A stretch of 64,000 bases of DNA from an uncultured Thermotogaceae bacterium (GTDB taxonomy: Bacteria; Thermotogota; Thermotogae; MWEM01): assembly GCA_964604305.1 (NCBI GenBank), contig CAZRYM010000002.1, positions 15,639 through 79,638 on the forward strand. Direction: 5' to 3'. Made by a program: the position numbers and the translations under genes. The notes beneath the pieces are model-generated. The model made no database searches and was not told where the DNA came from. It saw only the letters and a program-made list of their open reading frames with translations. This document shows, piece by piece, positions 12,720 to 34,480 of this stretch; position 1 is the first letter of the stretch, and the number at the start of each line of letters is the position of its first letter.

Positions 12720-14066
12720 TTGTTTTCTTATATGAAAAAATTTATCGTTTTAGGACTCGATTGTGCTGATCCAAAATTGGTTTTTGATGAATTCAAAGAT
12801 TTCTTACCAAATATTTCTGCTTTGATGTCAAGAGGTTCATTTGCTCCCTTGAAATCAACTGTTCCACCAATTACCGTTCCCGCTTGGATGAGTATGGTAA
12901 CCGGAAAGGATCCCGGGGAATTGGGATTATACGGCTTTCAAAACAGATTGGACAGATCTTACGACAGGCTTTTAATTCCAAACGCTTCTATGATAAATTA
13001 CGATACCATATGGCAAACTCTATCTAAGATGGATTTTACTTCACTTATCATTGGTGTGCCACTAACCTATCCTCCAAAACCTTTTAAAGGAAACATTATT
13101 ACCAGTTTTCTCACACCTTCGGTTAAAAGTAATTACACATTTCCCAAAAGCCTTAAATATGAAATCTCTTCATGGATCGATCAGTATATATTCGATGTGG
13201 AAAATCTCAGAACAGTCGACAAAAAAAGAGTCTTAAAGGATGTTTATGAGATGACAAACAAACGCTTTGAAGTTGCAAAGAGGCTCATGAAGAACAAAGT
13301 ATGGGATTTTTTTATGATGGTTGAGATGGGAACAGATCGAATGCATCATGCCTTTTGGGCGCACCATGATAAAACACATACGAAGCATGATCCCAAGAGC
13401 CCTTTCAGAGACTCCATTTTAAAATACTATCGATATGTGGATAAGAAGCTGGGAGAGATAATCCGGATGCTACCGGAAGAGACAGCTATTTTAATTGTTA
13501 GTGATCACGGTGTTCAAAAAATGGAGGGAGGCATAGCGATCAATGACTGGTTGATTGATCAGGGACTTCTTTGTTTGAAGAAAAGGCCTACTGTTCCAAC
13601 GAGAATAGAGACCCTGATAGCGATGGATATGATAGATTGGACAAAAACCTCTTGTTGGGCATTTGGCGGATATTATGGCAAGCTCTTTATAAACCTTAAG
13701 GGGAGAGAGTCTCAGGGATTCATTGAAGCAGGCAGGTTAGAAGCCTTTAAGACATCTCTGGAAGAAAAGATTCTTGAAATAAAAGATGAAGATGGCAGAG
13801 AGATCAATACAAAGATATTCAGACCAGAGAACATATACAGGGAACTTCAAAATATCCCGCCTGATCTTATGATTTATTTGGGTAACCTTTCATGGAGAGC
13901 TATCGGAACCGTCGGTAATGATAACATATGGATTCATGAAAACGATACAGGACCCGATGATGCCAATCACGCACAATTTGGTATTTCTATTTTTTCAGGT
14001 AAAAGATGTCCAAGTGAAATTACCCAAGTCTATGATTTTATCCTCAATCATTTCATTAACCCTTGA
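12720..14066 (+). CDS. Alkaline-phosphatase superfamily protein (type I phosphodiesterase/nucleotide pyrophosphatase family)
   Basis: LGLDCADP...VPPITVPAWMSMVTGKDPGELGLYGF...VSDHG are typical PF01663-like metal-site motifs. Confidence 0.7.
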   Translation: MFSYMKKFIVLGLDCADPKLVFDEFKDFLPNISALMSRGSFAPLKSTVPPITVPAWMSMVTGKDPGELGLYGFQNRLDRSYDRLLIPNASMINYDTIWQTLSKMDFTSLIIGVPLTYPPKPFKGNIITSFLTPSVKSNYTFPKSLKYEISSWIDQYIFDVENLRTVDKKRVLKDVYEMTNKRFEVAKRLMKNKVWDFFMMVEMGTDRMHHAFWAHHDKTHTKHDPKSPFRDSILKYYRYVDKKLGEIIRMLPEETAILIVSDHGVQKMEGGIAINDWLIDQGLLCLKKRPTVPTRIETLIAMDMIDWTKTSCWAFGGYYGKLFINLKGRESQGFIEAGRLEAFKTSLEEKILEIKDEDGREINTKIFRPENIYRELQNIPPDLMIYLGNLSWRAIGTVGNDNIWIHENDTGPDDANHAQFGISIFSGKRCPSEITQVYDFILNHFINP

Positions 14067-14141
14067 TGGTTAAAGTTTTTTAAAGAATGAGGAATATGAT
14101 AAAATCAAACCATGATCCTGATTCCTTTGGAGGAGTTCAAA

Positions 14142-15365
14142 ATGAAAATTGGTGAATTTGCCAGAAAATTCGATGCCAGAATCGATACTATTCGCTATTA
14201 TATAGATAATGGGATGTTGTTGCCGGAAAAGCTCCACAGTCAATATCGGTTTGATGATAAATGTGCTGAAGATATGACCCTTATCAAGGAATTGAAGCAC
14301 ATGCGTTTCAAGATAACTGAAATTAAAAAGATTCTTTCATTCAAACGGTTAACGAATCTAATTGATAAAACTAATCTGGAATATTATGCTCAATTTTTTA
14401 TCGAAAAAAGGGATGATCTTCTTGAAGAAAAAAAGGAGATTGAAAAAGCTATCAAAGCTGTAGATGATAAAATAACCGAGATTGAAACAGTAAAAAAAAC
14501 ACTCAAAACAAAGATTGGTATCCCCCTGCAGTTTTTTAACCTTTTGTACTGCCCAAAATGCCAGAAGAATCTTAAATTATATAATGCAATAGTGGATGGA
14601 AATTCGATTTACAATGGAGAACTTCATTGTGACTGTGGTTACCTTGCTATGATTCAAGATGGTATCATAATTGACCATAATATTGGGGAATCCTACAAAA
14701 AGGTGATGGAGGTTAATAAGTTTTCTCCTGAAGAATATCTCGAACAAACGGATACTCTGTTTATCAGTTTTACTCAAAAATCGTTTCAATGGGTTATTAA
14801 GAGATTGGATTTGGAATCTTTGAACAATCAAATGATTATGGAAATCGGAACCGGTAACGGGATGGTCATGACAAATGTTATCAAGGAAATAGCCAAGTCC
14901 AATTATTTTATCGCAACTGATAACAGCTTGGAGCAATTAAAAAGAACAAAACTATTAATGGAAAAGAATGGGATAGGGCAAAATTCTATTTTCATAGCTG
15001 CCGACTATGCGGACATTCCGTTAAAATGGGGGAGTGTTGACATTGTCTTGGATATCTTCGGAACCACTAATCACGTTTTTCATAGTGAAGAATTTTTATT
15101 TAATCACATTAAACCCTATCTAAAAGCTGCGGGAACACTCTATGGTACATATATCTATCTAAAGCCAATCTCATCAGAATTTCAACCTGAATACAGAAAG
15201 TTCAGAAAGTTTTTTATGCTTGAATCAATTAAAACTTCTCTAAACGATTTTGAGATAGTGGATGCCTCCACCTTTGGCTTCACACAATCAAGAGGAGACC
15301 TGAAAAATGTGTTAGGTGACGGATCCAAGATACATCAATGGGCTTGTCAGGCCAAAAAACCTTAG
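14142..15365 (+). CDS. MerR-family HTH fused to a Trm112-like zinc ribbon and a class I SAM-dependent methyltransferase domain
   Basis: MKIGEFARKFDARIDTIRYYIDNGML is a MerR HTH; CPKC...CDCG zinc ribbon; EIGTGNG MTase motif I; start chosen at an ATG with a GGAGGAG RBS. Confidence 0.7.
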   Translation: MKIGEFARKFDARIDTIRYYIDNGMLLPEKLHSQYRFDDKCAEDMTLIKELKHMRFKITEIKKILSFKRLTNLIDKTNLEYYAQFFIEKRDDLLEEKKEIEKAIKAVDDKITEIETVKKTLKTKIGIPLQFFNLLYCPKCQKNLKLYNAIVDGNSIYNGELHCDCGYLAMIQDGIIIDHNIGESYKKVMEVNKFSPEEYLEQTDTLFISFTQKSFQWVIKRLDLESLNNQMIMEIGTGNGMVMTNVIKEIAKSNYFIATDNSLEQLKRTKLLMEKNGIGQNSIFIAADYADIPLKWGSVDIVLDIFGTTNHVFHSEEFLFNHIKPYLKAAGTLYGTYIYLKPISSEFQPEYRKFRKFFMLESIKTSLNDFEIVDASTFGFTQSRGDLKNVLGDGSKIHQWACQAKKP

Positions 15366-15566
15366 GTAAAAGTTTCAGGACTTTGCCACATGGTACAATG
15401 GATGTTTTTTGTGAAAAACTGTTTTTTAAATCTCACCATTATATAATCAAATATTGAGTTCTTTAAATAAATATCCTTATTTGAACTAATAATCAAAAAT
15501 GATACAATCAATTTTTAAATAGCAAAGGTTAAAACAAATTAGGTTTATAAGGAGGAACTATATCTA

Positions 15567-17114
15567 ATGACTCTGGAGGAAATGATAGGTCGCCTATTTC
15601 TAATTGGAATAATGGGTACTGAGTTAACTCAAGAAACAAAGCTTTTATTGGATAAAATACAACCCGGTTTTATCATTCTTTTTCAAAGGAATATCCGGTC
15701 AAAGAATCAATTAAAAAAACTTGTGTCGGATATAAAGAATTATCTGAACAGACCCATTGTCTTTGCAATCGATCAAGAAGGTGGGATTGTAACACGTCTA
15801 GAAGAGGGATTTAGTATTTCGCCCGGTGCGATGGCTTTAAGTGCGACAAATGAATCAAAAAATGCGTTTGATGCAGGCGTTTTATTGGGCAAAGAAATGC
15901 GCGCAATGGGAATAAGTTGGAATTTGGCACCGGTAGTCGATATTAACGATAACTATCTAAACAGAAGTACTGGTGTCAGGTCATTTGGAGATACTTTGGA
16001 AAGGGTTTGTGAATTTTCCCAGGCTTTTTACAACGGCCTCAAACAAGAAGGCTGTGCAGCAACCGCCAAGCACTTTCCAGGAAGCGGAAGCATAGAAGTT
16101 GACCCACACTTGGATATGCCTATCTTGAATAAATCTTTAAATGATCTATTGAAAAATGAGCTCGTTCCATTTAAACAGTTGATTGATAGAGGAATAGAGT
16201 CTATAATGATTTCACATGTATATCTTCCCCAAATCATGAAACAAAAACTGCCGTCAGTACTTTCTTCAGAAGTGATGGAAGATATTTTAATCAAAAGGCT
16301 TGGTTTTAAGGGTGTTTTAATCAGCGATGATTTGACGATGGGTGGAGTAGCCAATTTCTACAACGTTGAAGAAGCTTCATATCATGCCCTAATGGCCGGA
16401 ATGGATGTGATTGACATCTGCCATGATGGCGAAAAGATGATTATGGCACATGATTATCTAATTGAAAAAGCTTCAAATGATCCGAGGGTTATGGCTGCTG
16501 TAAAGAGGTCTTTTGCGAAAGTTGATAGTTTTATAAACAATTTTTCCGTTCCACTTTCCGAAATTGATCCCATTCAAGCAGGCTCGAATGAAAACGTCAA
16601 GCTGATGCAACAAATAGCGGATAAAACCATCACGATATATAAAAACGAAGACCAATTACTCCCTTTACGCCATCTTGGGAAAGGAGATTTGATTTGTTCG
16701 GTCAAACCTTTACGACAATCTCTTGTTGAAGATGGAAAAGCTAGTGCTTATGTGTCTGCCTTTTTGCATGATAGATACCCTGAAGCGGATTATATTCGTT
16801 TTGATGCCAAAATAGAAGAAGCGGTTGTTAAGGAATTAATGAATGGTAAATCAGGCGGAACAGCTGTAGTAATGACAGAAAACGCCTATCTTTTTTCCGG
16901 GCAAAAAGAACTGGTTCAGCAGCTTACCAAATCTTTTGAACGCGTTCTGTTAGTTGCGCTTAGAAATCCTTATGATGCCGGAATTACGGGGATTAAAAAT
17001 GCAATCTTTTCTTATGGATACTCTTTGCCCAATCAAAAGGCGTTGATTAAGGTTTTAAGAGGCGAGATTAAAGCTGAAGGCGTATGTCCGGTTAAAATAC
17101 CGACGATCAGTTAA
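15567..17114 (+). CDS. nagZ: Glycoside hydrolase family 3 beta-N-acetylhexosaminidase (NagZ-like)
   Basis: FAIDQEGGIVTRL; KHFPGSG; the GH3 N-terminal domain plus a C-terminal domain; 515 aa. Confidence 0.8.
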   Translation: MTLEEMIGRLFLIGIMGTELTQETKLLLDKIQPGFIILFQRNIRSKNQLKKLVSDIKNYLNRPIVFAIDQEGGIVTRLEEGFSISPGAMALSATNESKNAFDAGVLLGKEMRAMGISWNLAPVVDINDNYLNRSTGVRSFGDTLERVCEFSQAFYNGLKQEGCAATAKHFPGSGSIEVDPHLDMPILNKSLNDLLKNELVPFKQLIDRGIESIMISHVYLPQIMKQKLPSVLSSEVMEDILIKRLGFKGVLISDDLTMGGVANFYNVEEASYHALMAGMDVIDICHDGEKMIMAHDYLIEKASNDPRVMAAVKRSFAKVDSFINNFSVPLSEIDPIQAGSNENVKLMQQIADKTITIYKNEDQLLPLRHLGKGDLICSVKPLRQSLVEDGKASAYVSAFLHDRYPEADYIRFDAKIEEAVVKELMNGKSGGTAVVMTENAYLFSGQKELVQQLTKSFERVLLVALRNPYDAGITGIKNAIFSYGYSLPNQKALIKVLRGEIKAEGVCPVKIPTIS

Positions 17115-17118
17115 GAAA

Positions 17119-17796
17119 TTACAGATTAAATCGAATTTCGACTGCTCTTCCTAAAAAAAGGCATTCCCTTTCCCACTCTTCAGGTTTGAAGAAGATGGGG
17201 CTGTAGGTGGTATTCTCGCTTAAAAGCCAGATGCCGTTTTTTGTATGATGTAATCTTTTTAACAACGCCTGATCGTTGTTTACGATGACGAGAGCTATCT
17301 CCAAGCTTCGAAGGCTTTCGATCGCTAAACGTTTGATAAGGGCTGTTGCACCGTTTGGTATCAACGGTTCCATGCTGTCCCCGTGAACCTTTACGGCGAA
17401 ATCAGCATCTGCTCCGTAAATATAATCTTCGGCTTGTTCCTGTGCCAGAATATTTGCTCCGGCACCCGTTAACCCAAGAATCGGAATTTGTTCTTGTAAA
17501 TATTCCAAGGCAGTTTGTGCATTGAATCCCTTTTGTTTGAGATAATGATTAATCTGCATCATCTCATCATCATCTGTTGTCTTTATGAAACCATTTTCTT
17601 CACTGGCTCTTAAAAGGTATTCAAGAGATATTTCGAATAAATTGGATAATTTGATCAGGACTTTTTTTGAAGGCTTTCTAATACCCCTTTCATAAGCCGA
17701 AATCGTTGACATATTTAATCCGAGAATATTTGCCAATTCATTTTGGTTTAACCCTCTCTTTTCTCTCATTTCTTTCAAGAGGTTTTCTATCTTCAC
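17119..17796 (-). CDS. XRE-family HTH repressor with a C-terminal S24 (LexA-like) self-cleaving peptidase domain
   Basis: LKEMREKRGLNQNELANILGLNMSTISAYERG HTH_XRE; GDSMEP Ser motif; downstream KR Lys; AG candidate cleavage site; likely GTG start at 17796 with AAGGAG; the ORF track extends to 17853. Confidence 0.75.
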   Translation of the reverse strand: MKIENLLKEMREKRGLNQNELANILGLNMSTISAYERGIRKPSKKVLIKLSNLFEISLEYLLRASEENGFIKTTDDDEMMQINHYLKQKGFNAQTALEYLQEQIPILGLTGAGANILAQEQAEDYIYGADADFAVKVHGDSMEPLIPNGATALIKRLAIESLRSLEIALVIVNNDQALLKRLHHTKNGIWLLSENTTYSPIFFKPEEWERECLFLGRAVEIRFNL

Positions 17797-17829
17797 GTTT
17801 TTGACTTCTCCTTTTTTACCGATGTCATA

Positions 17830-17838
17830 ATTATAGCA
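17830..17838 (-). promoter_or_regulatory. Extended -10 (TGcTATAAT) on the minus strand upstream of the XRE/S24 repressor gene
   Basis: Reverse complement of 17830-17838 is tgctataat, about 30 nt upstream of the proposed GTG start. Confidence 0.35.
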
Positions 17839-17900
17839 CAAAGCCGATGTCATACAAAATGTATGAAAATAATATTATAAAATAAAAAAAAGCAAAAAGC

Positions 17901-17929
17901 TTGACAAATTGTACGAATTGGTATATAAT
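17901..17929 (+). promoter_or_regulatory. Consensus sigma70-type promoter (TTGACA-17 bp-TATAAT)
   Basis: TTGACA at 17901-17906 and TATAAT at 17924-17929 with exactly a 17-bp spacer. Confidence 0.55.
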
Positions 17930-17935
17930 CATTTT

Positions 17936-17992
17936 GAAAGACAAAGACAATAACCCCAATAACTTCCCAACCCCCTCCCCGGGGGTTTTTTT
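17936..17992 (+). ncRNA. Candidate short C-rich transcript (about 55 nt) running from the promoter to an intrinsic terminator; alternatively a leader/attenuator of the hybrid kinase gene
   Basis: Predicted +1 near 17936; sequence ...aaCCCCaauaacuuCCCaaCCCCCuCCCC ends in a terminator hairpin; no ORF. Confidence 0.25.
17971..17992 (+). terminator. Rho-independent terminator (CCCCC-ucccc-GGGGG + U7)
   Basis: 5-bp all-GC stem with a 5-nt loop, followed by 7 T at 17986-17992. Confidence 0.55.
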
Positions 17993-18171
17993 GTAAGGAA
18001 AGAAAAATTCGTTTAGGAGATTTTTTTCGATTTTAACAAACGGATGAAATTCTCTGATATAATATGAGCAAATATAGTCGAAAAGAGAAAGTATTTAGAT
18101 TTACGGGGCGTACAATTTCCGTGAGAAAACGATCGGTTTTTTAAAGTAACTCTAACATTGTGAGGTATCTT

Positions 18172-21039
18172 ATGAGCTTATCTGAACAAATCAAAAAAAG
18201 AATTCTTCAGGATATCACATTAAAGCAATTAATGGATCATTCGGATAGAGCAGTATTTTGCAGAGACTTTTCGGGAACAATCGTTTATTGGGGGAAAAAT
18301 GCTGAGGAGCTCTATGGATATATGAGTAAGGAAATGGAAGGTAGTTCTATCTCTTTAATTAAGCCGGCGAATTATCCTGTTGAATTACCTTTCATTGATG
18401 ACAGGGTAAAGCAAGGAGAGCTGATCAAAGATTTCGAGACTACTCGAATAGATAAAGAAAAGCGAATTTTGAGTGTTTTAAGTTCCATCATACCCCTTGA
18501 AGTAAATGGAAAGTGCGTCGCAGCCATTCATCTGGAAAAAAACATCACTAAAGAAAAGAATAAATCACATGAAAAGCGTTTCAGGAAGATATTGGAAAGC
18601 TTTCCGGATGTAATATTTGAATTGGATAAAGATTTTAAAATCATCTGGGCGAATAAAATCGCATTGGAAATACAACCGCTTGCCATAGGGATGAAGTGTT
18701 ATGAGGCTTATGCAGATTCAAAAACACCGTGTGATGGTTGTGCGATTGTTCAAGCTTTGGAAAATGGTACACCGCAACAAAGTCTTACACATCATCTTCA
18801 ATTTCATGATGAAGAGAAATATTGGGAAAACTTGGCTATACCGGTTAAGGATTCTTATGGCAACATCACCTCCATTATCGAAGTTTCCAGGGATATAACA
18901 ACAAAAAAGATGGCAGAAATGGAACTCTTTAGAACAAAAGAGAGGCTGGAATTATCGATGAAAGCGGGCAATGTCGCCTGGTGGATATGGGATTATCAAA
19001 CCGGTTTCGTCGAGTATGACAAACGTAAAGCCGAAATGGCAGGTTATTCATATGAAGAATTTCCAAAAAATGTCTATAAAATAACGGAGTTGATTCATCC
19101 GGATGATTACGACAAAACGATGAAGGTGATGATGGATCATTTAAAGGGCCATACTCCGGAATACAGGATTGATTACAGATTAAAAACAAAGAACAATGAT
19201 TATGTGTGGTTCCATGACAGGGGAAAAGTTATAGAGCGTCAAGAGGACGGAACGCCGTTAAAACTTTCCGGAGCTGTTATCGATATTACAAAGAGGAAAG
19301 AAGTGGAGGAAAAGCTGAGAACCGCTCTCGATGGGCAAAAAAAAGTTGATGAATCATTAAAGACAGCCAAAAACCAGGCAGAGGAAGCCAATAAGGCGAA
19401 AAGTGAATTTTTGGCTAATATGAGCCATGAAATCAGAACGCCTCTTAACGGTATTGTTGGATTTACAGAATTACTTCTAAAAACCGATTTGACTCAGGCT
19501 CAAAAGAGATATATGGATCATGTCCATAATTCAGCAACTGCTCTGATGGATATTATCAATGATATTTTGGACTTTTCGAAAATTGAGGCTGGTAAACTGG
19601 AGCTTAATTACGAGCAGACGGACCTTGGTGAATTGATTAAAAATTCATTGGATGTCATAAAATATAAAGTTAGAGAAAAAGATATCAGGCTTACCAAGGA
19701 TATCGATAAAAGGATTCCCCTTTATCTTTTAACGGATCCAATCCGATTAAGACAAATCCTGACGAATTTACTCAGCAATGCTGCAAAATTTACTGAACAT
19801 GGTCAAATAAGCCTTTCGGTACATTGTATTCGTTGTTTACATGAAGATTCCATCGTACAACTTCATTTTGCAGTAAAGGATACGGGGATAGGAATTTCTG
19901 CTGAAAATCAGAAAAAGGTCTTTAACTCTTTTTTACAAGCGGATCATTCAACTACAAAAAAATATGGTGGGACGGGGTTGGGACTCAGTATTACCAACAG
20001 CCTATTACAGATGATGGGAAGCAGCCTTAATGTAGAAAGCAAATTGGAAGAGGGCAGTACCTTTTCTTTTGATCTTGAGCTAAAAGCAGTGGAACCTGAT
20101 ACAATAACTTTGACAGAAAACCAGGATATAAGTGAAAATGTTTATTATAAATCAGAATTTTCTGAGAAAATTGAAGAAGCTGATATAAAAGCTTTCAAAA
20201 CACAACCGGTGAAAATATTAATAGCCGAAGATAATGAAGTGAATATGGAACTCACGGAAATTATTCTCAAAGACATTTTCGGCATGTTAGACAAAAAAGA
20301 AGATAACAAAAGCCCATTAAGAATAATAAAAGCTGTGAACGGTAAAGAAGCCATAGAACAGTATTTGAAGGAGTCACCGGAGATTGTTTTTCTGGACATT
20401 CAAATGCCTGTTAAAAATGGTTATCAAGTGGCTAAAAATATCAGAAAGCATGAATCTGAGACTTTAAAACCATTCGTAGTTGCCTTAACAGCAGCTGCTG
20501 TTAAGGGTGAAAGAGAGAAATGTCTTCAAGCCGGTATGGATGAATATATTACAAAACCTGTGGTAAATCAGTCGATAAAGGAGATTCTCCAACGATACCT
20601 TGAAATAAACAACTTAAAAGTAATTATTAAACAACCTAAAAAACCGGAAGCTATAACAAAAGACACAAATCATTCGATTAATGATCAAAATAAGATAGAA
20701 CATTTTAATTCTCAGCAGCTAAAGAAAGTGTTTAACGAAGATCAGGAGATGTTTAATCACATACTCAGTATTGGGAAAAACTCATTAATTGAAGAAGCAG
20801 GTAAATTGAGAGATTATTTATCAAAAGGGCAGATAAGTGGACTAAAAAAAAGTGCTCACAAAGTAAAAGGTATGGCATTAAATCTTAGGTTTGAAAGATT
20901 GCAACAGCTGGCAGAGAAGCTGGAAAAGTCTACTCTTCAAGAAACATCAGTTGAAATATTCCAACCTTTAACTCGAACTGTGATAGAGGAGATCAATTTT
21001 TTAACTAACATGTTGGAAGATAAATTTAATCTGCTATAA
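18172..21039 (+). CDS. Hybrid sensor histidine kinase: multiple PAS/PAC domains, HisKA, HATPase_c, receiver and C-terminal Hpt domain
   Basis: H-box ANMSHEIRTPLNGI; G-boxes DTGIGIS...GGTGLGLSI; receiver KILIAEDNEVN...FLDIQMP...ITKP; Hpt HKVKGMALNL; ATG 18172 has a GAGGT RBS. Confidence 0.85.
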   Translation: MSLSEQIKKRILQDITLKQLMDHSDRAVFCRDFSGTIVYWGKNAEELYGYMSKEMEGSSISLIKPANYPVELPFIDDRVKQGELIKDFETTRIDKEKRILSVLSSIIPLEVNGKCVAAIHLEKNITKEKNKSHEKRFRKILESFPDVIFELDKDFKIIWANKIALEIQPLAIGMKCYEAYADSKTPCDGCAIVQALENGTPQQSLTHHLQFHDEEKYWENLAIPVKDSYGNITSIIEVSRDITTKKMAEMELFRTKERLELSMKAGNVAWWIWDYQTGFVEYDKRKAEMAGYSYEEFPKNVYKITELIHPDDYDKTMKVMMDHLKGHTPEYRIDYRLKTKNNDYVWFHDRGKVIERQEDGTPLKLSGAVIDITKRKEVEEKLRTALDGQKKVDESLKTAKNQAEEANKAKSEFLANMSHEIRTPLNGIVGFTELLLKTDLTQAQKRYMDHVHNSATALMDIINDILDFSKIEAGKLELNYEQTDLGELIKNSLDVIKYKVREKDIRLTKDIDKRIPLYLLTDPIRLRQILTNLLSNAAKFTEHGQISLSVHCIRCLHEDSIVQLHFAVKDTGIGISAENQKKVFNSFLQADHSTTKKYGGTGLGLSITNSLLQMMGSSLNVESKLEEGSTFSFDLELKAVEPDTITLTENQDISENVYYKSEFSEKIEEADIKAFKTQPVKILIAEDNEVNMELTEIILKDIFGMLDKKEDNKSPLRIIKAVNGKEAIEQYLKESPEIVFLDIQMPVKNGYQVAKNIRKHESETLKPFVVALTAAAVKGEREKCLQAGMDEYITKPVVNQSIKEILQRYLEINNLKVIIKQPKKPEAITKDTNHSINDQNKIEHFNSQQLKKVFNEDQEMFNHILSIGKNSLIEEAGKLRDYLSKGQISGLKKSAHKVKGMALNLRFERLQQLAEKLEKSTLQETSVEIFQPLTRTVIEEINFLTNMLEDKFNLL

Positions 21040-21073
21040 TGCTGACGAAGATGATGTTACTGAGTTTTTTTAG

Positions 21074-22339
21074 ATGACTTTTAAAATGGAGATGAATGGA
21101 AGTGATCAAATGGCAAAAAATCTTTTATATGCACAATCAGGAGGGGTAACTCCTGTTCTTAATGCCTCAGCTTATGGTGTTATTTCTGCAGCACTTAATT
21201 CAAATGCCGTGTACAAAGTTTATGCAGCGAAGAATGGCATACAGGGCGTTTTAGATGAAGAACTTTTTGTGATAAACGATGAAAAAAAAGAGGAAATTGA
21301 AAAAATGGCTTACACTCCCGGTGGTATTTTTGGCTCCTGTCGGGTGAAAATAGAAACCGAAGAACAACTTAACCAGGTGTTTTCAGTCTTTAAAGCCCAT
21401 AATATTGGTTATTTCTTATACAATGGAGGAAATGATTCCATGGAAACAGCCCTATCCGTTTCAGAGTATGCTAAAAAGATTGGCTACGATTTAAAGGTTT
21501 TTGGTATTCCCAAAACGGTGGACAATGATCTGATGAATACAGATCATTGCCCGGGGTATGGTTCTGCCGCCAAATTTACAGCAACGGCGATTTTGGAAGC
21601 TACAAGAGATCTCAAATCCATGAGTTTGTCTTCCACGAAGGTATTTCTGATGGAATCAATGGGAAGGCATGCCGGATGGCTTGCAGCCTCAGCAGCATTG
21701 GCACAGGAAGTGGAAGAAGCTGCTGCTTCGGTGATACTCTTACCAGAGGTTGCCTTTTCGAAAGGAAAGTTCCTCGCACGTGTTGAAGAGGAGATTATCA
21801 AGAACGGTTTTTGTTCGATAGTGGCATCAGAGGCATTAACTGATGAGAAGGGTAAATTTATTTCAGATGCTGGATATAAGGATACATTCGGTAATGTTCA
21901 ACTGGGTAAAATCAGTAACGTACTAGAACAGTTGATTAAAGACGAACTGAAATTGAAAATCCATACCGCCTTACCCGATTATCTTCAAAGATCTTCAAGA
22001 CATATTGCAAGCCTGACTGATTGGCAAGATGCCATAGAGGTTGGCGCAAGAGCGGTTCTTTGGATGACAAATCATTCCATGTCCGGGAAGATGGTCAGCA
22101 TTGTCAGAGACATGGATCAACCGTATATCAGACATTTTGAAATGGTAGAACTTAGTGATGTTGCAGGGGAAACAAAGACTTTACCTAATGATTTTATCGA
22201 TGAATCGGGTTTTAACGTTACCCAAAAATTCTGGCAATACGCCAGACCTTTGATTATAGGGGAAACACCAAATCAATACATGTACGGAGTGCCCATGTAT
22301 GCTAAATTAAAATATGTTCTTGAACAGAAAGTCCTTTAA
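21074..22339 (+). CDS. pfp: Pyrophosphate-dependent 6-phosphofructokinase (long PFK-A family; Pfp-like)
   Basis: SGGVTPVLNAS; NGGNDS; PKTVDNDL; MGRHAGWLA; 421-aa long form; the true start may be the internal ATG at 21110. Confidence 0.75.
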   Translation: MTFKMEMNGSDQMAKNLLYAQSGGVTPVLNASAYGVISAALNSNAVYKVYAAKNGIQGVLDEELFVINDEKKEEIEKMAYTPGGIFGSCRVKIETEEQLNQVFSVFKAHNIGYFLYNGGNDSMETALSVSEYAKKIGYDLKVFGIPKTVDNDLMNTDHCPGYGSAAKFTATAILEATRDLKSMSLSSTKVFLMESMGRHAGWLAASAALAQEVEEAAASVILLPEVAFSKGKFLARVEEEIIKNGFCSIVASEALTDEKGKFISDAGYKDTFGNVQLGKISNVLEQLIKDELKLKIHTALPDYLQRSSRHIASLTDWQDAIEVGARAVLWMTNHSMSGKMVSIVRDMDQPYIRHFEMVELSDVAGETKTLPNDFIDESGFNVTQKFWQYARPLIIGETPNQYMYGVPMYAKLKYVLEQKVL

Positions 22340-22421
22340 TGGGCACTAGTTGAAAAAAACAAGAGGCATATAAAATTCGTCAAGATTAATTAAGTTTTAT
22401 TAATTTAAGAGGAGGGCGTAT

Positions 22422-23801
22422 ATGAAATCTTATGAGTTGGTAATAATTGGTGCCGGACCCGGAGGTTATGTCGGTGCAATCAGAGCTTCACAGCTGGGAA
22501 TAAAGACCGCAGTGATTGAAAAGGATAAACCCGGTGGAGTATGTCTTAATATTGGATGTATTCCTTCGAAGGCATTGATACATCAAGCTGAGAAATTTAA
22601 CGCCATTTCAGATCTGGAAAAGATGGGAATAAAAGTAGATACTAGTGAATTTGATTATAAACAGGTTTTTAAAAAGTCAAGACTTGCTGCAAAAAAGCTT
22701 TCCAAAGGGGTTCAATTCCTTTTAAAGAAAAATAAAGTGGATTATATTGAGGGGGAAGCCTCTTTTAAAGATAAAAACACCATTCTGGTCAACGAAGAAG
22801 AAATTCAGGCTAATCAAATTATTATCGCAACGGGATCCAGACCGAAACAGATTCCCGGTTTCGTTATAGATGAAGAAAATATTCTTAGTTCAACCGGCGC
22901 CTTAATGCTTGAAAAGCTTCCAAAGAAGATGCTTATTCTTGGAAGCGGGGCGATTGGTGTTGAATTTTCTCATGTGTTTAGTTCCTTTGGAGTTGAAATA
23001 CATCTCGTTGAGATGCTTGATAATATCATACCAACAGAGGATGAGGATATTAGCAAAGAATTGGAGAAAGCGTTTAAAAAAAGAAAGATAAACTGTTACA
23101 CTTCTACAAAAGCAACTGGTGTTGAGAAAACCGAAAATGGGTTAACGGTCACATTAAAAGATAAAGAAGGCAATGAAGAAAAACTCGAGGTAGATAAAAT
23201 ATTGCTTGCTGTAGGAAGAGATACGAATATTGAAGGACTAGGCCTTGATAAAATTGGGGTCGAATTGGAGAGGGGAAATTTCATAAAAACGGGGGATTAC
23301 TATGAAACTTCAGTGAAAGACGTTTATGCTGTTGGTGATGTAGTCTCATCCCCATTACTTGCGCACGTGGCTTCAAAGGAAGCTGAAATTGCAGTTGAAC
23401 ATATAGCCGGTAAGGAACCGGAGAAAAAATTGGATCCAACTATTATCCCCGGAGCTGTTTATTGTGAGCCCGAGATTGGAAGTTTCGGTTTAAAGGAAAA
23501 AGATATTCAGGATAAAAAGGTCAAAGTATCAAAGTTCCCATATAAAGCGATCGGAAAAGCAACGGCAATAGAACAATCAGAAGGATTTATCAAATTAATT
23601 ACCGATGAAAATTCCGGAGAAATACTTGGTGCAAGTATTATAGGTGCACAAGCAACGGAATTGATACATGAACTGTTATTGGCAAAGGATTCTGGAATCT
23701 TTACAGAGAAAATTGCTCAACTCATTCATGCACATCCCACCCTTTCAGAAGGTCTTATGGAAGCCTCAAGATTATCAAATGGCTGGGCAATACAAGTTTA
23801 G
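22422..23801 (+). CDS. lpdA: Dihydrolipoyl dehydrogenase
   Basis: IIGAGPGGYVGAIRASQLG; redox disulfide GGVCLNIGCIPSK; C-terminal HAHPTLSE dimerization motif. Confidence 0.85.
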   Translation: MKSYELVIIGAGPGGYVGAIRASQLGIKTAVIEKDKPGGVCLNIGCIPSKALIHQAEKFNAISDLEKMGIKVDTSEFDYKQVFKKSRLAAKKLSKGVQFLLKKNKVDYIEGEASFKDKNTILVNEEEIQANQIIIATGSRPKQIPGFVIDEENILSSTGALMLEKLPKKMLILGSGAIGVEFSHVFSSFGVEIHLVEMLDNIIPTEDEDISKELEKAFKKRKINCYTSTKATGVEKTENGLTVTLKDKEGNEEKLEVDKILLAVGRDTNIEGLGLDKIGVELERGNFIKTGDYYETSVKDVYAVGDVVSSPLLAHVASKEAEIAVEHIAGKEPEKKLDPTIIPGAVYCEPEIGSFGLKEKDIQDKKVKVSKFPYKAIGKATAIEQSEGFIKLITDENSGEILGASIIGAQATELIHELLLAKDSGIFTEKIAQLIHAHPTLSEGLMEASRLSNGWAIQV

Positions 23802-23843
23802 ATTTAACTCATCATCTTGAACAATGAGGAGGAGTGAAAAGGA

Positions 23844-24113
23844 ATGCCAAGTTGGCTTTATGTGATACCCTTCCTTTGGTTTGCTATCAGTGGTATCGTT
23901 AAGTTTGTCAAATCAGGCGGGCAGAAGATCGTGATGCTTGGGGATATAGTTATAGCAACAGGGTTTTTATATCAATTAATTTTCCCAACAGGTACCACCG
24001 GTTTTTTTATTGCAGGAGCCGGTGTTATTGTTGATTTGATACTGTATCTAATCGTATTAAAACAAACAAAAAGGAATCAAAGTGAAAAAACAGAAAATGA
24101 AAATCGGAAATAA
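23844..24113 (+). CDS. Small hypothetical membrane protein (2-3 TM)
   Basis: 89 aa, two or three hydrophobic spans; RBS GAGGAGTG; followed by its own terminator. Confidence 0.45.
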   Translation: MPSWLYVIPFLWFAISGIVKFVKSGGQKIVMLGDIVIATGFLYQLIFPTGTTGFFIAGAGVIVDLILYLIVLKQTKRNQSEKTENENRK

Positions 24114-28167: not shown

Positions 28168-29433
28168 TTAATCTATCTTGAATTCCCTGGTTGGATGGTT
28201 TGTGTAATTGATGACACGACCTTCCCAAGTCCTGATTGTAATGTATTCTTTCCCCCTTGAAATAAGGTATTCTGGCAGGATAGGTGTTTTACCATAACCG
28301 CCGGGCGCATTTATGATATATGTGGGGATTGCCAGACCTGAAGTGTAACCCCGCAGGTATTCCATGATTTCCAATCCGTCATCAACTGATGTATTAAAGT
28401 GCGTTGTGCCCTTCACATGTTTGGCATGAAAAATGTAATAAGGTCGCACCCGTACTTTCAATAGCTCTTGATTGAGTAATTTCATAACGTGTTTATCGTT
28501 ATTGATACCATTCAACAATACAGCCTGATTACCAAGTGGTATTCCTGCGTTTGCCAATTTTTCGCAAGCTTCTTTGGCTTCGATTGTAATCTCTTTTGGA
28601 TGATTGACATGTGTGTTGATAAAAAGCGGATGGTATTTTTTTAACATGCTAACAAGCTCATCTGTGATTCTTTGCGGCATGGTTACCGGAGTCCTGGAAC
28701 CTATTCTGATAATTTCCACATGTTCGATCTTTCGCAATTTTGACAGAATGTTTTCCAGGTAGTTGTCAGTCATAGTCAAAGGATCGCCACCGGTGATTAA
28801 TACATCCCTTATCTCTTCATTTTGTGCTATATAATCTATGGATTCATCGATTACGGATATCGGTTGCGGTTCATCTTCCTCTCCAATATTCCGTCTTCTC
28901 TGGCAATGGCGGCAAAACATGGCACATTCATTAGTAACATTAATGATCAATCTGTCGGGATATCGCCTGGTAACTGTTCCGGCCGGATTGGTAAGTTGTT
29001 CGTTCATGGGGTCTAATTTCCCTTCTTTGTCTACGTCTTCAAAGATCGTTGGTATAGCTTGTAATCTGATCGGACAATAAGGATTTGTTTTGTCCATGAG
29101 ACTGGCATAGTAAGGGGAAATTGCCCAGCGGTATCTTTCTCCGATTTTTTCAATGTCTTTTCTGTGCTTATCTGTTAAATCTACTACTTGTGAAAGAGTT
29201 GATACATCAGAGATTCGATTGGCCAGTTGCCAATGATAATCACGCCACTGTTCTAAAGTGCAATTTAATGCAAGCATGATTCGTTCACGATTTCTTTTAA
29301 ATTCCTCTGTGAGATCCATACCTTTTTTGATATGTTTTTTAGCCTCTATGAAGTCCGAAATTCGACTTTTCAGCTCTTGCGCCCTGTCCAAAGAAACACT
29401 TTTCTTTTTATCGTAGTTAGTATTTTTTTCCAT
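28168..29433 (-). CDS. kamA: Lysine 2,3-aminomutase (radical SAM, KamA family)
   Basis: CAMFCRHCQRRR CxxxCxxC radical-SAM motif; KamA-type N-terminal region; start at 29433 after GGGAGGTGG. Confidence 0.8.
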   Translation of the reverse strand: MEKNTNYDKKKSVSLDRAQELKSRISDFIEAKKHIKKGMDLTEEFKRNRERIMLALNCTLEQWRDYHWQLANRISDVSTLSQVVDLTDKHRKDIEKIGERYRWAISPYYASLMDKTNPYCPIRLQAIPTIFEDVDKEGKLDPMNEQLTNPAGTVTRRYPDRLIINVTNECAMFCRHCQRRRNIGEEDEPQPISVIDESIDYIAQNEEIRDVLITGGDPLTMTDNYLENILSKLRKIEHVEIIRIGSRTPVTMPQRITDELVSMLKKYHPLFINTHVNHPKEITIEAKEACEKLANAGIPLGNQAVLLNGINNDKHVMKLLNQELLKVRVRPYYIFHAKHVKGTTHFNTSVDDGLEIMEYLRGYTSGLAIPTYIINAPGGYGKTPILPEYLISRGKEYITIRTWEGRVINYTNHPTREFKID

Positions 29434-29696
29434 ATCAATCACTTGACCACCTCCCAAGGAGTCTGGAAAAACGAGAATATATTGACTATAAACCATTATA
29501 AATAATAAGATTTGCATAGTTTCAGCATAAAAACCAGAAAAGCAATTGTAGTTTACCTCAAAAGATTATAGCTTATTAAAAATGATATGTCAAATCACAA
29601 GGATTTGTTTTTTCTTGTCTTTAGAATTTCTTGTTGTTGGTTTGATTTGATATAATAGATCAGTTTGAAAGATATTAAAAGACGAGGTGAACGGCG

Positions 29697-32000
29697 TTGA
29701 CTATTGGTAAAAAATTGATGCTAGGGTTTGGTTTAATAATTGTGTTGTTGTTGATTGTGATGCTAATTTCTTTCATTTCCAGCCAAAGCATTAAAGACGA
29801 GGGTGAAAGTATTGTGATTCAGGCAAAAGATGCCAGATCTGAATACAAACAATTTACTAACATAGATACTTTTGAATCGGATTTAAAGGATATGCTCCAA
29901 TATGTATTGAGACTGGGTTATGTAACAAATACAGATGAACAGGAAATGATGTTCGAAGAATATAAAAAGATGTTTTCTGCTGTAGAAGAACTGTCGAAGA
30001 CTAATGGATTTTTTTCACTTTTAGAATTAGAATTAACCAAATTGAATGATAGTGTTGAAAAGATCTTCACGCAAAAGGCGTTAGAATTGGATGCCCTTTC
30101 ACAGCTTTCTGCTGACAAAGTAACAGCAGAGGACATCAGAACACAATTGGAATTTTTGTATAAAGAAAAGGAAGAACTGCTAAAGAGGGATGACATGAAG
30201 ATCGTCCGTATCATTCAAACTTTACAAATGATGAAACAGGATTATATTTCCTTAAGACAGCCTGATGAAAAGAAAGAGAATGAAATAAAAGAACGACTTT
30301 TAGAATCAGGTTTAGATGGGTTAACTTTCATTGAGATGGAAGTTTTATGGGACAATGAAGTTTTGGGAGGGCCGCCAATCACTGGATTTCCTATGCTTAT
30401 TCTCTGTGCAAGAGAATTGATGGCAACCGATGGTAAATATCCGGATTTCTTATCAGAGTTGAAACAGGCGAAAGAAGATATTCTGGATTATATAAAATTA
30501 AAAACTCAATTTGGTTATACTACATATGATGCTGTGGCATCCATTTTTGTTCCGTTATCTGTTGAGTTATATGAAAAAAAACTGAAAAAACTGCAGGAGT
30601 CGTTGTTAAAAATAAGCCGTATGGAAGTCAATTTACAAGCAAAGGAAAATATGGTCGGCTACCATAATGAAACTGCTGAGCAAGCCCGAAAAGACTCGCT
30701 AAATACCATTAAAAATGAACTTTCAACAGTATTGAATGATTTGCAGGTACGACTTGAAGCACTTATTTCTGAAAGCGCCACTAGTTTTAATGAAAATCTC
30801 AATCAAGTGGAAGAAAAAAGTGAAGAAAGCGTTACTCTGATAAACAACATGAATTCGTTTATTTTGATCGTGTTGATCACATCCGTTTTGATCAGCATCA
30901 TCATTGCCTACTTTATCTATTCAAGTATCAAAAAACCTATTGTCAACATCCTGAAAAAAACCGAAAAAATCAAAAACCTTGACTTTACTGTTGAATTTGA
31001 AGAAACAAAGAAAAAAGATGAAATGGGACAATTGGAAACTGCGTTGAAAGAGATTGTATGGGCTGTTAAAGAAACCTTGCAGAATGTAAAAAAGGCAATA
31101 GAAGATGTGAAGGAATCCACCGACAAACTGGAACAGGTAGCCGGTGAATCCGAAAACATCTCAAAGGAGCTTAAATCACAGGCAGACAGGACGGAAAACG
31201 ATGTACAAGACACGTCAGCGGCGATTGAAGAGGTAAGTTCGGGAGTAGAGGAAGTGGCGGCATCGGCGAAGAACATCACAGACGTATCGTCAGATCTGTA
31301 CGAAAGGACACAGGAAACGTCCAAATCGGCAAAAAGCGGACAGAAAGAACTGACAAAAGTGGCAGACATTGTCAAGGAAGCGGAAGAGCAGGCAAAGGCA
31401 ACGTCCAGAGTAGTAGAGGAGTTGCAAGCAAATGCGAAGAACGTGGGAGAAATCGTCAAGACGATATCGGGAATCTCAGAACAGACGAACCTGTTGGCGT
31501 TAAATGCTGCGATAGAGGCAGCGCGTGCTGGAGAAGCAGGTAAAGGCTTTGCGGTAGTAGCGGATGAGATCAGGAAATTGGCGGAAGAGAGTCAGAAATC
31601 GACGGAAGACATTGCAAAGATGCTCAAAGAGATTGGAAATGGAGTGGGCGAAGTCAACGATGCTTCGGATAAGACGGTGGAGATTGTAAACAAGATGGAA
31701 GAAAACTCCAGAGAGGCCCTTGAACAATTTGAAAACATACTTGAACGACTGAGCGGGGTAACGGAGTCCGTCCACAATCTCAACAGTACATCAGAGGAAC
31801 AAAGTGCGGCAGCGCAAGAGATAGCGGATGCAATGGATCAATCAGCCCGATCCATGGTTAATGCTTCCGAACAGGTTGAGAATATGGTTCGTGATGTTGA
31901 ACAACAAGTTGATTCAATATCAAAAATGAATGAGATATCACAAACAATGAGGCGTTTAGCAGATGATTTAAGATTGGATATCAGCAAATTTAAATCATAA
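29697..32000 (+). CDS. Methyl-accepting chemotaxis protein 1 (N-terminal TM span, large extracytoplasmic sensor, second TM, HAMP, MCP signalling domain)
   Basis: TM1 [22 protein letters not shown]2 [20 protein letters not shown], then HAMP; highly conserved MCP signalling domain ...[39 protein letters not shown]. Confidence 0.85.
31119..31891 (+). repeat. Copy A of a 773-bp block 100% identical to 33599-34371 (MCP signalling domain), GC-rich relative to its flanks
   Basis: Base-by-base identity with an offset of 2480 bp; mismatches immediately outside both ends. Confidence 0.95.
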
Positions 32001-32176: not shown

Positions 32177-34480
32177 ATGAAAATTTCTACCAAGTTATTA
32201 ATGGGATTTACAGTTATTATTATCATTCTTGTTGTAGTTTTATTGGTATCCACCATATCTAACAGAGAAGTTGTTTTGCAAGCAGATACTGTTCTTGAGC
32301 AAACAGATGCTTCTGAGAAAGAGCTTCTTGAATTTAGAAGGTATAATCAGTTGGAAAGTGGTATCAAAGATATGATACAGACTGTATTGAATTTGGGATA
32401 TGTGGCAACGATAGAAGAAGAGAATTTGATTAAAGAACAATACCAAAAAAATGTAGAAAGTTTGAAGGAGATCATATCAAGCTATGAAAGTGCTGAGACT
32501 TACTTACAAACTATTTCTCAGATAGACGAATATGTCAAAGATGTATTCAACTATAAAGAAATAGAGATTCTTTCTCAAAAGGAATTAGAAGAGAATCAGG
32601 AAAAGCAAAAGCAATTCATGGTAAAAAAGACTTCTTTTACTGAAAAGATTCAGAAGATGCAGAAAGTAGATATGCAAAAAGTTGAAAAAACCATGGAATC
32701 GTTTAAACTTATAAAAGACGAGCATGCAGAAATGAAAAAGCCAACCGATGAGCAAAAGCAGATGTTGAATGAAGAGTTGATCAGTAAAACAGATGTCGAA
32801 GAGTTGGGAATGTATGAAATAGAGGAGATTTGGAAACCGGAATTACTTGATATAACCATAAAGGAGTTTTCTGATCTTGAATTCGTAACACGAAATATTA
32901 TCATCAATCCGGAAGATTCGGAGGAATTGCTTCCCAAGGCAGTTGAAATTGCCGAAAAGATAAACAGCAATGTGGGTTTTCAGGTGATGTTTGGTTCAGC
33001 TGTGTATGATCCTGTCTCTGCACAACTGATATCTTTAACCTTGGATAAGTATATTGAGCAGCTGAAAGAAATGGTAAAAATAATCAATGAGAGAGAAGAA
33101 AATGAAAAAGCCATGATCGTAGTACAGGAAGTAATAGAAAATGCAAATCAAAGGGTAGATGAAAGCAGAACTTTGGCTTTTAATATTATCAATACCAATA
33201 TTAAGACTAGCAGTCGGGAGCTGTCATCCATTATCGAGGAAAAAGCCGAAAACCAATATGGAAGTTTGAAACAAAGTTTTGAATCTATCAAAAAGAATAA
33301 CACAACCAGTAAAGAAACAATAGAGAAAAACAATTTCCAAATATTATTGCTGATATCAATCACCATTGTGATTAGTCTGATTGTAGCGGTAGTTATTATC
33401 AGAAGCATTAAAAAGCCAATTAAACGTTTACTTGAGAAATCAACTTTACTTCAAAATCTGGATATGACGGTGGATTTTGAAGCAGATAGCGGTAAAGACG
33501 AAATAGGACAAATCGAACACGCACTGGCACGGGTCGTAGAGGTCATAAAAGATACATTAACCGATTTCAGAAATGCAGTTCAGAACGTTAGAATGGCAAC
33601 CGACAAACTGGAACAGGTAGCCGGTGAATCCGAAAACATCTCAAAGGAGCTTAAATCACAGGCAGACAGGACGGAAAACGATGTACAAGACACGTCAGCG
33701 GCGATTGAAGAGGTAAGTTCGGGAGTAGAGGAAGTGGCGGCATCGGCGAAGAACATCACAGACGTATCGTCAGATCTGTACGAAAGGACACAGGAAACGT
33801 CCAAATCGGCAAAAAGCGGACAGAAAGAACTGACAAAAGTGGCAGACATTGTCAAGGAAGCGGAAGAGCAGGCAAAGGCAACGTCCAGAGTAGTAGAGGA
33901 GTTGCAAGCAAATGCGAAGAACGTGGGAGAAATCGTCAAGACGATATCGGGAATCTCAGAACAGACGAACCTGTTGGCGTTAAATGCTGCGATAGAGGCA
34001 GCGCGTGCTGGAGAAGCAGGTAAAGGCTTTGCGGTAGTAGCGGATGAGATCAGGAAATTGGCGGAAGAGAGTCAGAAATCGACGGAAGACATTGCAAAGA
34101 TGCTCAAAGAGATTGGAAATGGAGTGGGCGAAGTCAACGATGCTTCGGATAAGACGGTGGAGATTGTAAACAAGATGGAAGAAAACTCCAGAGAGGCCCT
34201 TGAACAATTTGAAAACATACTTGAACGACTGAGCGGGGTAACGGAGTCCGTCCACAATCTCAACAGTACATCAGAGGAACAAAGTGCGGCAGCGCAAGAG
34301 ATAGCGGATGCAATGGATCAATCAGCCCGATCCATGGTTAATGCTTCCGAACAGGTTGAGAATATGGTTCGACAGCTTGAAAATCAATCAGCTTCGGTAA
34401 AAGATTTATCTCAGACTTCAAGCGAGTTGACAGTTCTAAACAAAGAACTTGAAGAGGATATCAACAAATTTAAATTATAG
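32177..34480 (+). CDS. Methyl-accepting chemotaxis protein 2; tandem paralog with a divergent sensor domain and an identical signalling domain
   Basis: Same architecture and length (767 aa) as MCP1; N-terminal 470 aa unrelated at sequence level; C-terminal 257 aa identical. Confidence 0.85.
33599..34371 (+). repeat. Copy B of the 773-bp identical block
   Basis: See copy A. Confidence 0.95.

Follow-up and report, generated by a model that had tools for sequence, protein, structure and literature searches.

A putative small RNA gene divergent from a LexA/CI-like repressor gene in uncultured Thermotogota

Background

A consensus promoter that runs into an intrinsic terminator within a few dozen nucleotides, with no open reading frame (ORF) between the two, raises the question of what is made from it and how it is controlled. 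Such a unit occupies positions 17901-17992 of a 64,000-nt stretch of DNA (the window) from an uncultured Thermotogaceae bacterium (GenBank assembly GCA_964604305.1, contig CAZRYM010000002.1, positions 15,639 to 79,638 of the forward strand), where it lies back to back with the gene of a LexA-like repressor and, on its other side, upstream of the gene of a hybrid histidine kinase. In the initial annotation, which was made from the letters of this DNA, it was proposed that the unit is either a free-standing small RNA (sRNA) of about 55 nt or a transcription attenuator that gates the kinase gene. From the comparison with related loci described below we conclude that the unit is most likely an undescribed regulatory sRNA and not the leader of the neighbouring kinase gene.

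We know of no regulatory sRNA of the Thermotogota with action in trans that has been characterised. Provided that it is expressed, the RNA would be a defined and testable sRNA of this phylum, in which post-transcriptional control is almost unexplored, and the dedicated and presumably self-cleaving repressor beside it leads to a clear hypothesis on the timing of its production. The module would also exemplify the reuse of a phage-type switch for the control of a riboregulator, and an invariant RNA of such small size with one hairpin is easy to synthesise and to test. The practical limit is that all the carriers are uncultured metagenome-assembled genomes (MAGs) and that the distribution is narrow. 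The Thermotogota are deep-branching bacteria with short 5' untranslated regions and strong Shine-Dalgarno (SD) sequences, and the promoters of Thermotoga maritima have a relatively high sigma-70-associated information content (PMC3636130).

Results and discussion

The promoter-RNA-terminator unit

The promoter of the unit (17901-17929, + strand) consists of TTGACA at 17901-17906, a spacer of 17 nt, and TATAAT at 17924-17929, and it is located exactly where the initial annotation had placed it. It matches the sigma-70 consensus at 12/12 positions and is the only such match on the + strand of the window, while the number expected by chance is about 0.04 per 64 kb of this composition. The predicted transcription start, G17936, is 7 bases past the -10 box and agrees with the position of about 17936 that had been proposed. 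When conservation, promoter, and terminator are used to set the limits, the predicted product is a C-rich small RNA of 57 nt, GAAAGACAAAGACAAUAACCCCAAUAACUUCCCAACCCCCUCCCCGGGGGUUUUUUU (17936-17992, +), which begins with an A-rich 5' part (17936-17952), continues with a C-rich core, and ends in the terminator. The intrinsic terminator (17969-17992, +), which was found both by folding and by a terminator scan, has a 7-bp stem, AACCCCC/GGGGGUU, a UCCCC loop at 17976-17980, and a run of seven U. The hairpin proper (17969-17987) has a minimum free energy (MFE) of -12.1 kcal/mol with 5 G-C pairs and a 5-nt loop, and the U-run extends to 17992. The GC-rich stem, the short loop, and the immediate U-run are those of an intrinsic terminator, and in the scan this was the best terminator-like site within 14000-24000. 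The hairpin and the U-run at 17971-17992 had been noticed before; in our folds the stem is longer than described then. The other TTGACA-N16-18-TATAAT sequence in the window with a 12/12 match, at 29565-29593 (-), is upstream of a radical-SAM/lysine-2,3-aminomutase-like gene (28168-29517, minus).

Four C runs are present in the RNA, at 17954-17957, 17966-17968, 17971-17975, and 17977-17980, and the C-rich runs reported in the initial annotation, one of which is in the terminator loop, are among them. The segment 17953-17980 contains 17 C and no G and is the most C-dense stretch of 28 nt in the whole window on either strand. As there are only 3 G against 19 C in the first 45 nt of the RNA, the C motifs are left unpaired, and the terminal hairpin is the sole structure in the MFE and centroid folds of the unit. 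In both folds CCCC at 17954-17957 and UCCC at 17965-17968 are unpaired and UCCCC forms the loop of the terminator. The first two of these belong to the motif CCCCAAUAACUUCCC (17954-17968, +), which is predicted to be single-stranded and has invariant or nearly invariant columns in the alignment of related loci described below; its lineage variants are ACCCAAUAACUUCCCC in the locus L021 and CCCCAAUAAUUACCC in L008 and L009.

That the unit carries no ORF, as had been noted, is borne out by the absence of ATG, GTG, and TTG from its + strand and by indels of 1 nt among its orthologous copies, and because of these indels coding is excluded on either strand. An ORF of 42 amino acids on the minus strand (17831-17959) was considered and rejected, as it spans the promoter and its frame is interrupted in the orthologs by indels of 1 nt.

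Conservation of the unit in related loci

Related loci were obtained by three routes. A search with the repressor alignment, in which one genome was taken per species, gave 9 Thermotogota loci with a repressor identity of 49-79%; exact-protein look-ups gave the near-identical twin contig L001 and the lineage L021/L022 (61% identity); and 8 more stretches came from a scan of metagenomes for a pattern based on the RNA alone. Over the recovered loci the repressor orthologs are 49-80% identical in amino acid sequence, and in every recovered locus that has such an ortholog the promoter-RNA-terminator unit is upstream of the repressor gene and divergent from it. This same context was found in 8/8 of the metagenome stretches, which had been picked up by the RNA sequence alone. 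All the named homologs and related genome records are from Thermotogota or Thermotogaceae MAGs, and the nearest cultured relatives, as judged by the identity of the phosphofructokinase (PFK) encoded further downstream, are Kosmotoga (61-63%) and Mesotoga (57-58%). The strongest evidence that the unit is not a chance occurrence is that it is nearly unchanged in 15 non-redundant related loci.

The limits of the conserved block are informative as well. In an alignment of 14 non-redundant loci, from which mean column identities were calculated for each segment, the value was 0.97 for the promoter (0.95 for its spacer alone) and 0.94 for the transcript (17936-17992), and it was 0.66 for the discriminator, that is, the six bases from the -10 box to the start site, 0.65 for the AT-rich stretch upstream of the promoter, and 0.53 for the 38 bases past the T-run. 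The conserved block in the transcribed region thus runs from the predicted +1 to the end of the T-run and coincides with the limits of the predicted transcript, which is what a discrete RNA gene predicts. The comparison of the window with L008, whose repressors are 49% identical to each other, gives the same picture, with 27/30 identical positions in the promoter and 32/40 in the C-rich core and terminator, and 11/38 in the region just after the terminator. Stem, loop, and U-run are identical across 9 distinct sequence variants, and the four C tracts are kept in every lineage, as is the linker AAUAAYUW. On these sequence comparisons we consider it likely that the unit is a functional and discrete RNA gene. 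In two short assemblies, L001 and L007, the contig ends within the C-rich/GC-hairpin segment of the unit, and these breaks may reflect poor sequencing or assembly across C/G homopolymers.

A covariance model, R1, which was built from the 9 distinct variants and run over 215 kb, found exactly one copy of the unit per locus with scores of 68-90 bits and nothing comparable elsewhere. An extra R1 match of 26.6 bits in L006/L018 lies within the coding sequence of GH3 and was set aside as a chance match to AACCCCAATAA. A pattern search that allowed 3 mismatches likewise gave a single copy in the window.

The divergent repressor and the candidate operators

The gene that is divergent from the unit (17119-17796, minus strand) encodes a repressor of 225 amino acids with an XRE-type helix-turn-helix (HTH) domain and a Peptidase_S24 domain of the LexA/CI kind, as identified by Pfam and by homolog alignment. 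In the numbering of the long ORF, HTH_3 was matched with an E value of 6e-17 at residues 26-80 and Peptidase_S24 with 3e-18 at residues 124-237. The start codon is GTG at 17796 and not the first ATG of the ORF at 17853, because all 16 homologs begin at ORF position V20. In an alignment of 17 sequences Ser160 (in GDSME), Lys199, and Gly-Ala-Gly 130-132 are invariant, and these putative catalytic and cleavage-site residues are hallmarks of LexA/CI-type self-cleaving repressors; the spacing between the dyad and the cleavage site we take to resemble that of LexA. Both domains and a Ser-Lys dyad with an upstream Ala-Gly are therefore present, as in the LexA/CI type. Among structures in the PDB, the matches are to LexA catalytic domains for the C-terminal half of the protein and to ImmR-type HTH domains (the Xre-type regulator of ICEBs1) for the N-terminal half. 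The promoter of the repressor has an extended -10 element, TGCTATAAT (17838-17830, -), which was read from the sequence; the block ATTATAGCA at this -10 element is conserved in the alignment A2, and TGTTATAAT is found at the equivalent place in L008 and L009. The initial annotation was correct in that the unit sits back to back with the promoter of a LexA-like XRE/S24 repressor gene, and this proved to be the key feature of the locus. At 29% identity, the relative most distant from the repressor was found in L024 (93-2225) and L025; it belongs there to a prophage-like switch that also has a divergent gene for a Cro-like HTH protein of 72 amino acids and, downstream, a phage integrase gene.

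In the intergenic region the motif ACAAAWTGTRYGA occurs twice, 50-52 bp apart, once at the repressor promoter and once inside the sRNA promoter. The first copy is part of O1 (17851-17865), a palindrome, CATACAAAATGTATG, that covers the -35 region of the repressor promoter as a candidate operator and has a column identity of 0.82; CRTACAAAATGTAYG is present at O1 in most lineages. The second, O2 (17904-17917), is an operator-like copy, ACAAATTGTACGAA, that was recognised by the recurrence of the motif and lies over the -35 hexamer and the spacer of the sRNA promoter. The O2 motif is within the sRNA promoter in 15/15 loci. An upstream copy that matches the 8-nt test motif at a distance of 50-52 bp was found in 4/15 loci (the window, L006, L010, and L021), and in most of the others a related element, CRTACAAAATGT, is present upstream. 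The sequence between the two copies varies among the loci. In the window, exact matches to ACAAAWTGTRYGAA are confined to O1 and O2, with 0.03 expected, and as the pattern had been derived from these very sites this test is circular, so it is the conservation across species that counts as real evidence. Relaxed matches elsewhere in the window were at chance level and gave no further operators. An identity of 0.95 in a promoter spacer is hard to explain if the spacer does not also serve as an operator, and the arrangement suggests that both promoters are repressed by the autocleavable repressor.

Downstream genes and alternative explanations

Downstream of the unit in the window are two genes on the same strand. 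The kinase gene (18172-21039, +), whose product has three PAS domains followed by HisKA, HATPase_c, REC, and Hpt in Pfam, is a variable neighbour that lies outside the unit; its ATG at 18172 is 180 nt past the T-run, the distance given in the initial annotation. The constant downstream neighbour is the gene of a pyrophosphate (PPi)-type PFK (21074-22339, +; Pfam PFK). The order GH3, repressor, unit, kinase if present, PFK, and Pyr_redox is retained in L021. The unit is followed by the kinase gene in the window as well as in L004, L005, L006, L010, L013, L015, L016, L017, and L020, and in three lineages (L002, L008/L009, and L021) the PPi-PFK gene is directly downstream with no kinase gene between. 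In L003 (3300-3650, minus) the kinase gene is reduced to a remnant of the start and about 30 codons, which is followed by a second TGATATAAT promoter and the PFK gene; this is a recent deletion of the kinase gene that left the sRNA unit intact. The TGATATAAT element itself, the extended -10 promoter of the kinase/PFK operon, is at 18055-18063 (+) in the window and is conserved past the terminator. A second extended -10 promoter after the terminator is in fact present in all loci, as TCTGATATAATAG at a variable distance of 25-100 nt past the terminator in loci of the window type and as TGGTATAAT abutting the T-run in L008, L009, and L021, and the downstream genes therefore have their own transcription start.

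The position of the unit 180 nt upstream of the kinase gene and on the same strand is what had led to the proposal that it is an attenuator or leader of that gene, and on the evidence from the other loci we regard this as very improbable. The unit is unchanged where the kinase gene is missing or degenerate, and a conserved promoter of the form TGnTATAAT stands between the terminator and the kinase gene. Folding of the kinase leader for alternative antiterminator structures had been suggested as a check. The MFE and centroid folds of the unit show the terminator alone; an antiterminator is impossible because the 5' part has just 3 G in 45 nt, and the fold of the whole leader was no better than that of shuffled sequences (z = +0.41). 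An attenuator is thus not supported, as there is no competing antiterminator and the downstream gene varies and has its own promoter. The reading as a free-standing sRNA of about 55 nt, by contrast, is favoured by the comparative data, because the unit stays beside the repressor gene while the gene downstream of it changes, and the conserved block is the predicted transcript. Another explanation is that the unit acts in cis, as a gate or insulator of the PFK operon or the kinase-PFK operon. The strong repressor-controlled promoter and its terminator would then determine the amount of transcription that arrives at PFK, through partial read-through or through occlusion of the adjacent promoter, and the short RNA would be a by-product. 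PFK is indeed the constant downstream neighbour, and in L008, L009, and L021 the T-run enters the TGGTATAAT -10 box of the PFK promoter directly, so terminating polymerases and open-complex formation would share DNA in these loci; in L009 there is also an operator-like TTTGTACGATTC just past the PFK -10 box. A by-product would have no need to keep its 33 unpaired nucleotides at an identity of about 0.94 while the neighbouring spacers drift, however, and in the window-type lineages the second promoter is 25-100 nt away at a variable distance. There is also no alternative fold that could modulate the terminator, and no copy of the unit precedes PFK in Kosmotoga pacifica, K. arenicorallina, a Mesotoga MAG, or one other MAG, which means that PFK does not need it. 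For these reasons we find a cis gate unlikely. In the long intergenic regions upstream of PFK in K. pacifica (L026:2260-2460) and K. arenicorallina (L027:2000-2400), a GC-rich unit of about 110 nt is repeated that contains palindromes, …CCGCCGCAGGCGCA.AGCCATTCCGGAGGAATGCAAGGCCGTGAC…AGCCTGGGCG.AGCCCAGCATGGCTATTTT, two copies being present in L027 and a related one in L026; the repeats of L027 had no Rfam match at the gathering threshold, and those of both loci look like repeats of the repetitive extragenic palindrome or miniature inverted-repeat transposable element (REP/MITE) type or a structured-RNA repeat.

Two further explanations were considered. The RNA could be a sponge that titrates a protein with a preference for C-rich single strands (a KH-domain protein, Rho, or a cold-shock protein) or a G-rich RNA, without pairing to mRNAs. 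The retention of the four C tracts together with the linker AAUAAYUW fits a defined binding surface, a consensus promoter would supply the high copy number that titration takes, and mRNA targets were not found in the available sequence. The last point is uninformative, however, since the search covered 64 kb of the genome, and the 57 nt contain just two to three motifs, against a far larger number in CsrB and other known titrating RNAs. As, in addition, the conserved genes around the unit include none for a partner protein, we give the sponge no better prospects than the cis gate. Alternatively, the conserved feature could be the DNA itself, with a template-strand G-quadruplex (GGGGAGGGGGTTGGGAAGTTATTGGGG) or a coding-strand i-motif regulating the divergent promoters or local DNA transactions. 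With both strands of the 64 kb considered, the segment 17954-17980 (-) is the only motif of four G3+ tracts with N1-8 loops. In every lineage each of the four tracts retains 3 G/C or more, and in L021 a C that is lost from tract 1 is accompanied by a C gained in tract 2. A quadruplex would leave unexplained, though, why the sequence of the 8-nt loop, the A-rich 5' part, the promoter, and the terminal U-run are conserved, and loops of 8 nt weaken quadruplexes, so a role as a DNA element appears far-fetched to us.

Comparison with known systems

Rfam 15 was searched with the whole window at gathering thresholds, with 17800-18200 at E<=10, and with three related loci. Neither the window nor the three related loci gave a family for the unit at gathering, and at E<=10 there were four weak matches in 17800-18200, all of them far under the gathering scores, with LhrC among them. 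A search of IMG/VR with the unit pattern gave no match, and a phage origin of the unit was set aside on this ground. Literature searches on Thermotoga sRNAs and on sRNAs controlled by S24/XRE repressors turned up neither this element nor a comparable Thermotogota sRNA. On sequence grounds the unit is probably a new sRNA family that is confined to one clade and has an unusual regulator of its own.

LhrC recognises the G-rich SD region of lapB through UCCC motifs that lie both in a single strand and in its terminator loop, and the UCCC motif is also used by RsaE, RNAIII, SprD, and FsrA (PMC4132741). Like the LhrC family of Listeria monocytogenes (RF00616), the RNA described here is poor in G and has redundant UCCC motifs placed in a single strand and in the terminator loop, namely UUCCCA at 17964-17969 and the loop UCCCC at 17976-17980, of which the loop motif alone is invariant across the lineages. 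There is no homology between the two, as the unit scores 17.4 bits (E = 4.3) against a gathering score of 110. LhrC is about 110 nt long, has two hairpins, is multicopy, and is under the control of the two-component system LisRK, whereas this RNA is 57 nt long, has one hairpin, and is encoded beside an S24 repressor in Thermotogota. One copy of it was found in the 64-kb window and one in each related locus. The likeness to RsaE/RoxS of the Bacillales that had been pointed out in the initial annotation stands as an analogy of design, in that there are unpaired C-rich and UCCC regions, one of them in the loop, and a Rho-independent terminator. Membership in that family does not stand, since the RsaE/RoxS model of Rfam had no match in the window at gathering nor in 17800-18200 at E<=10, and RNAs of that family are about 90-115 nt with at least 2 hairpins, compared with 57 nt and a single hairpin here in another phylum. 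RsaE and RoxS, with their greater length, multiple hairpins, and redox-linked control, pair through their C-rich regions with G-rich ribosome-binding sites.

As for the control of the unit, the CI-Cro switches of phages and of integrative and conjugative elements (S24/ImmR-like) share with this locus the back-to-back divergent promoters, repeated operators, which here are candidates, and an autoregulated repressor, which autoregulation is presumed here. They differ in that the rightward promoter of this locus leads to a predicted 57-nt non-coding RNA that ends at a terminator and not to cro or lytic genes, and in that its neighbours are housekeeping genes (GH3, PFK, and Pyr_redox) and it has no match in IMG/VR. 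This location among housekeeping genes, together with a distant relative in a prophage switch, suggests a domesticated switch whose rightward transcript has turned into a non-coding RNA. Tentatively, then, a prophage-type CI/Cro switch may have been domesticated in such a way that its 'Cro side' became a 57-nt anti-SD RNA, the result being a self-contained stress switch of one self-cleaving repressor protein and one RNA, an SOS-like regulon with the sRNA as its sole output that was fixed on the chromosome clade-wide in Thermotogota, and we offer this as a speculative extension which we ourselves hold to be rather doubtful. A precedent for the mode of control exists in the LexA-controlled small RNAs of E. 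coli (for example IstR-2 of the tisB/istR locus), which appear upon damage because a self-cleaving S24 repressor otherwise keeps their promoter off. Those RNAs, unlike this one, are in type I toxin-antitoxin loci and in the canonical LexA regulon; the present locus lacks a toxin ORF, the HTH is of the XRE type, and the predicted operators in the window are at this locus alone.

Proposed mode of action

The explanation we favour is that the sRNA gene and the divergent XRE-HTH/S24 repressor gene form a fixed two-gene module. RNA synthesis would start from the sigma-70 promoter at about G17936, and the intrinsic terminator would release an RNA of about 57 nt. The repressor would bind both copies of ACAAAWTGTRYGA, O1 and O2, and the sRNA would stay off up to the inactivation of the repressor, probably by self-cleavage in the manner of LexA and CI after DNA damage or some other signal. 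Upon loss of the repressor the consensus promoter would then give a burst of the sRNA in large amounts. The sRNA most likely acts in trans, with its exposed C-rich and UCCC motifs pairing with G-rich SD regions, and this pairing would block the translation of the target mRNAs as it does with the UCCC-motif sRNAs of low-GC Gram-positive bacteria. It is because the design resembles the C-rich sRNAs of these bacteria that repression of translation is the favoured outcome. For the full model, a repressor-controlled and trans-acting anti-SD sRNA, the case for and the case against seem to us about evenly balanced.

Several results weigh against this model. When duplex energies were calculated for the 53 start regions of the window they were no better than those of shuffled RNA, and no target was found there. 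The folding energy of the RNA is ordinary for its composition (z = -1.27), and there is no covariation support for the hairpin in the 9 variants, which is because the stem is invariant. With 57 nt and one hairpin, the RNA is both shorter and of a simpler build than the C-rich sRNAs of Gram-positive bacteria, and the candidate operators were assigned from motif repetition and conservation. Within the window the complement of the unpaired motif was found in the unit itself alone. The segment that encodes the G2 box (GTGLG) of the kinase, GGGACGGGGTTGGGA at 19968-19984 (+), is complementary to the C-rich core at 14/17 positions with 10 contiguous pairs, and it was discarded as a target because its synonymous positions vary in the orthologs, which makes the match probably one of chance.

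Further downstream in the window, at 29697-32000 and 32177-34480 (+), there are two adjacent ORFs of 767 amino acids each, which may be tandem paralogs.

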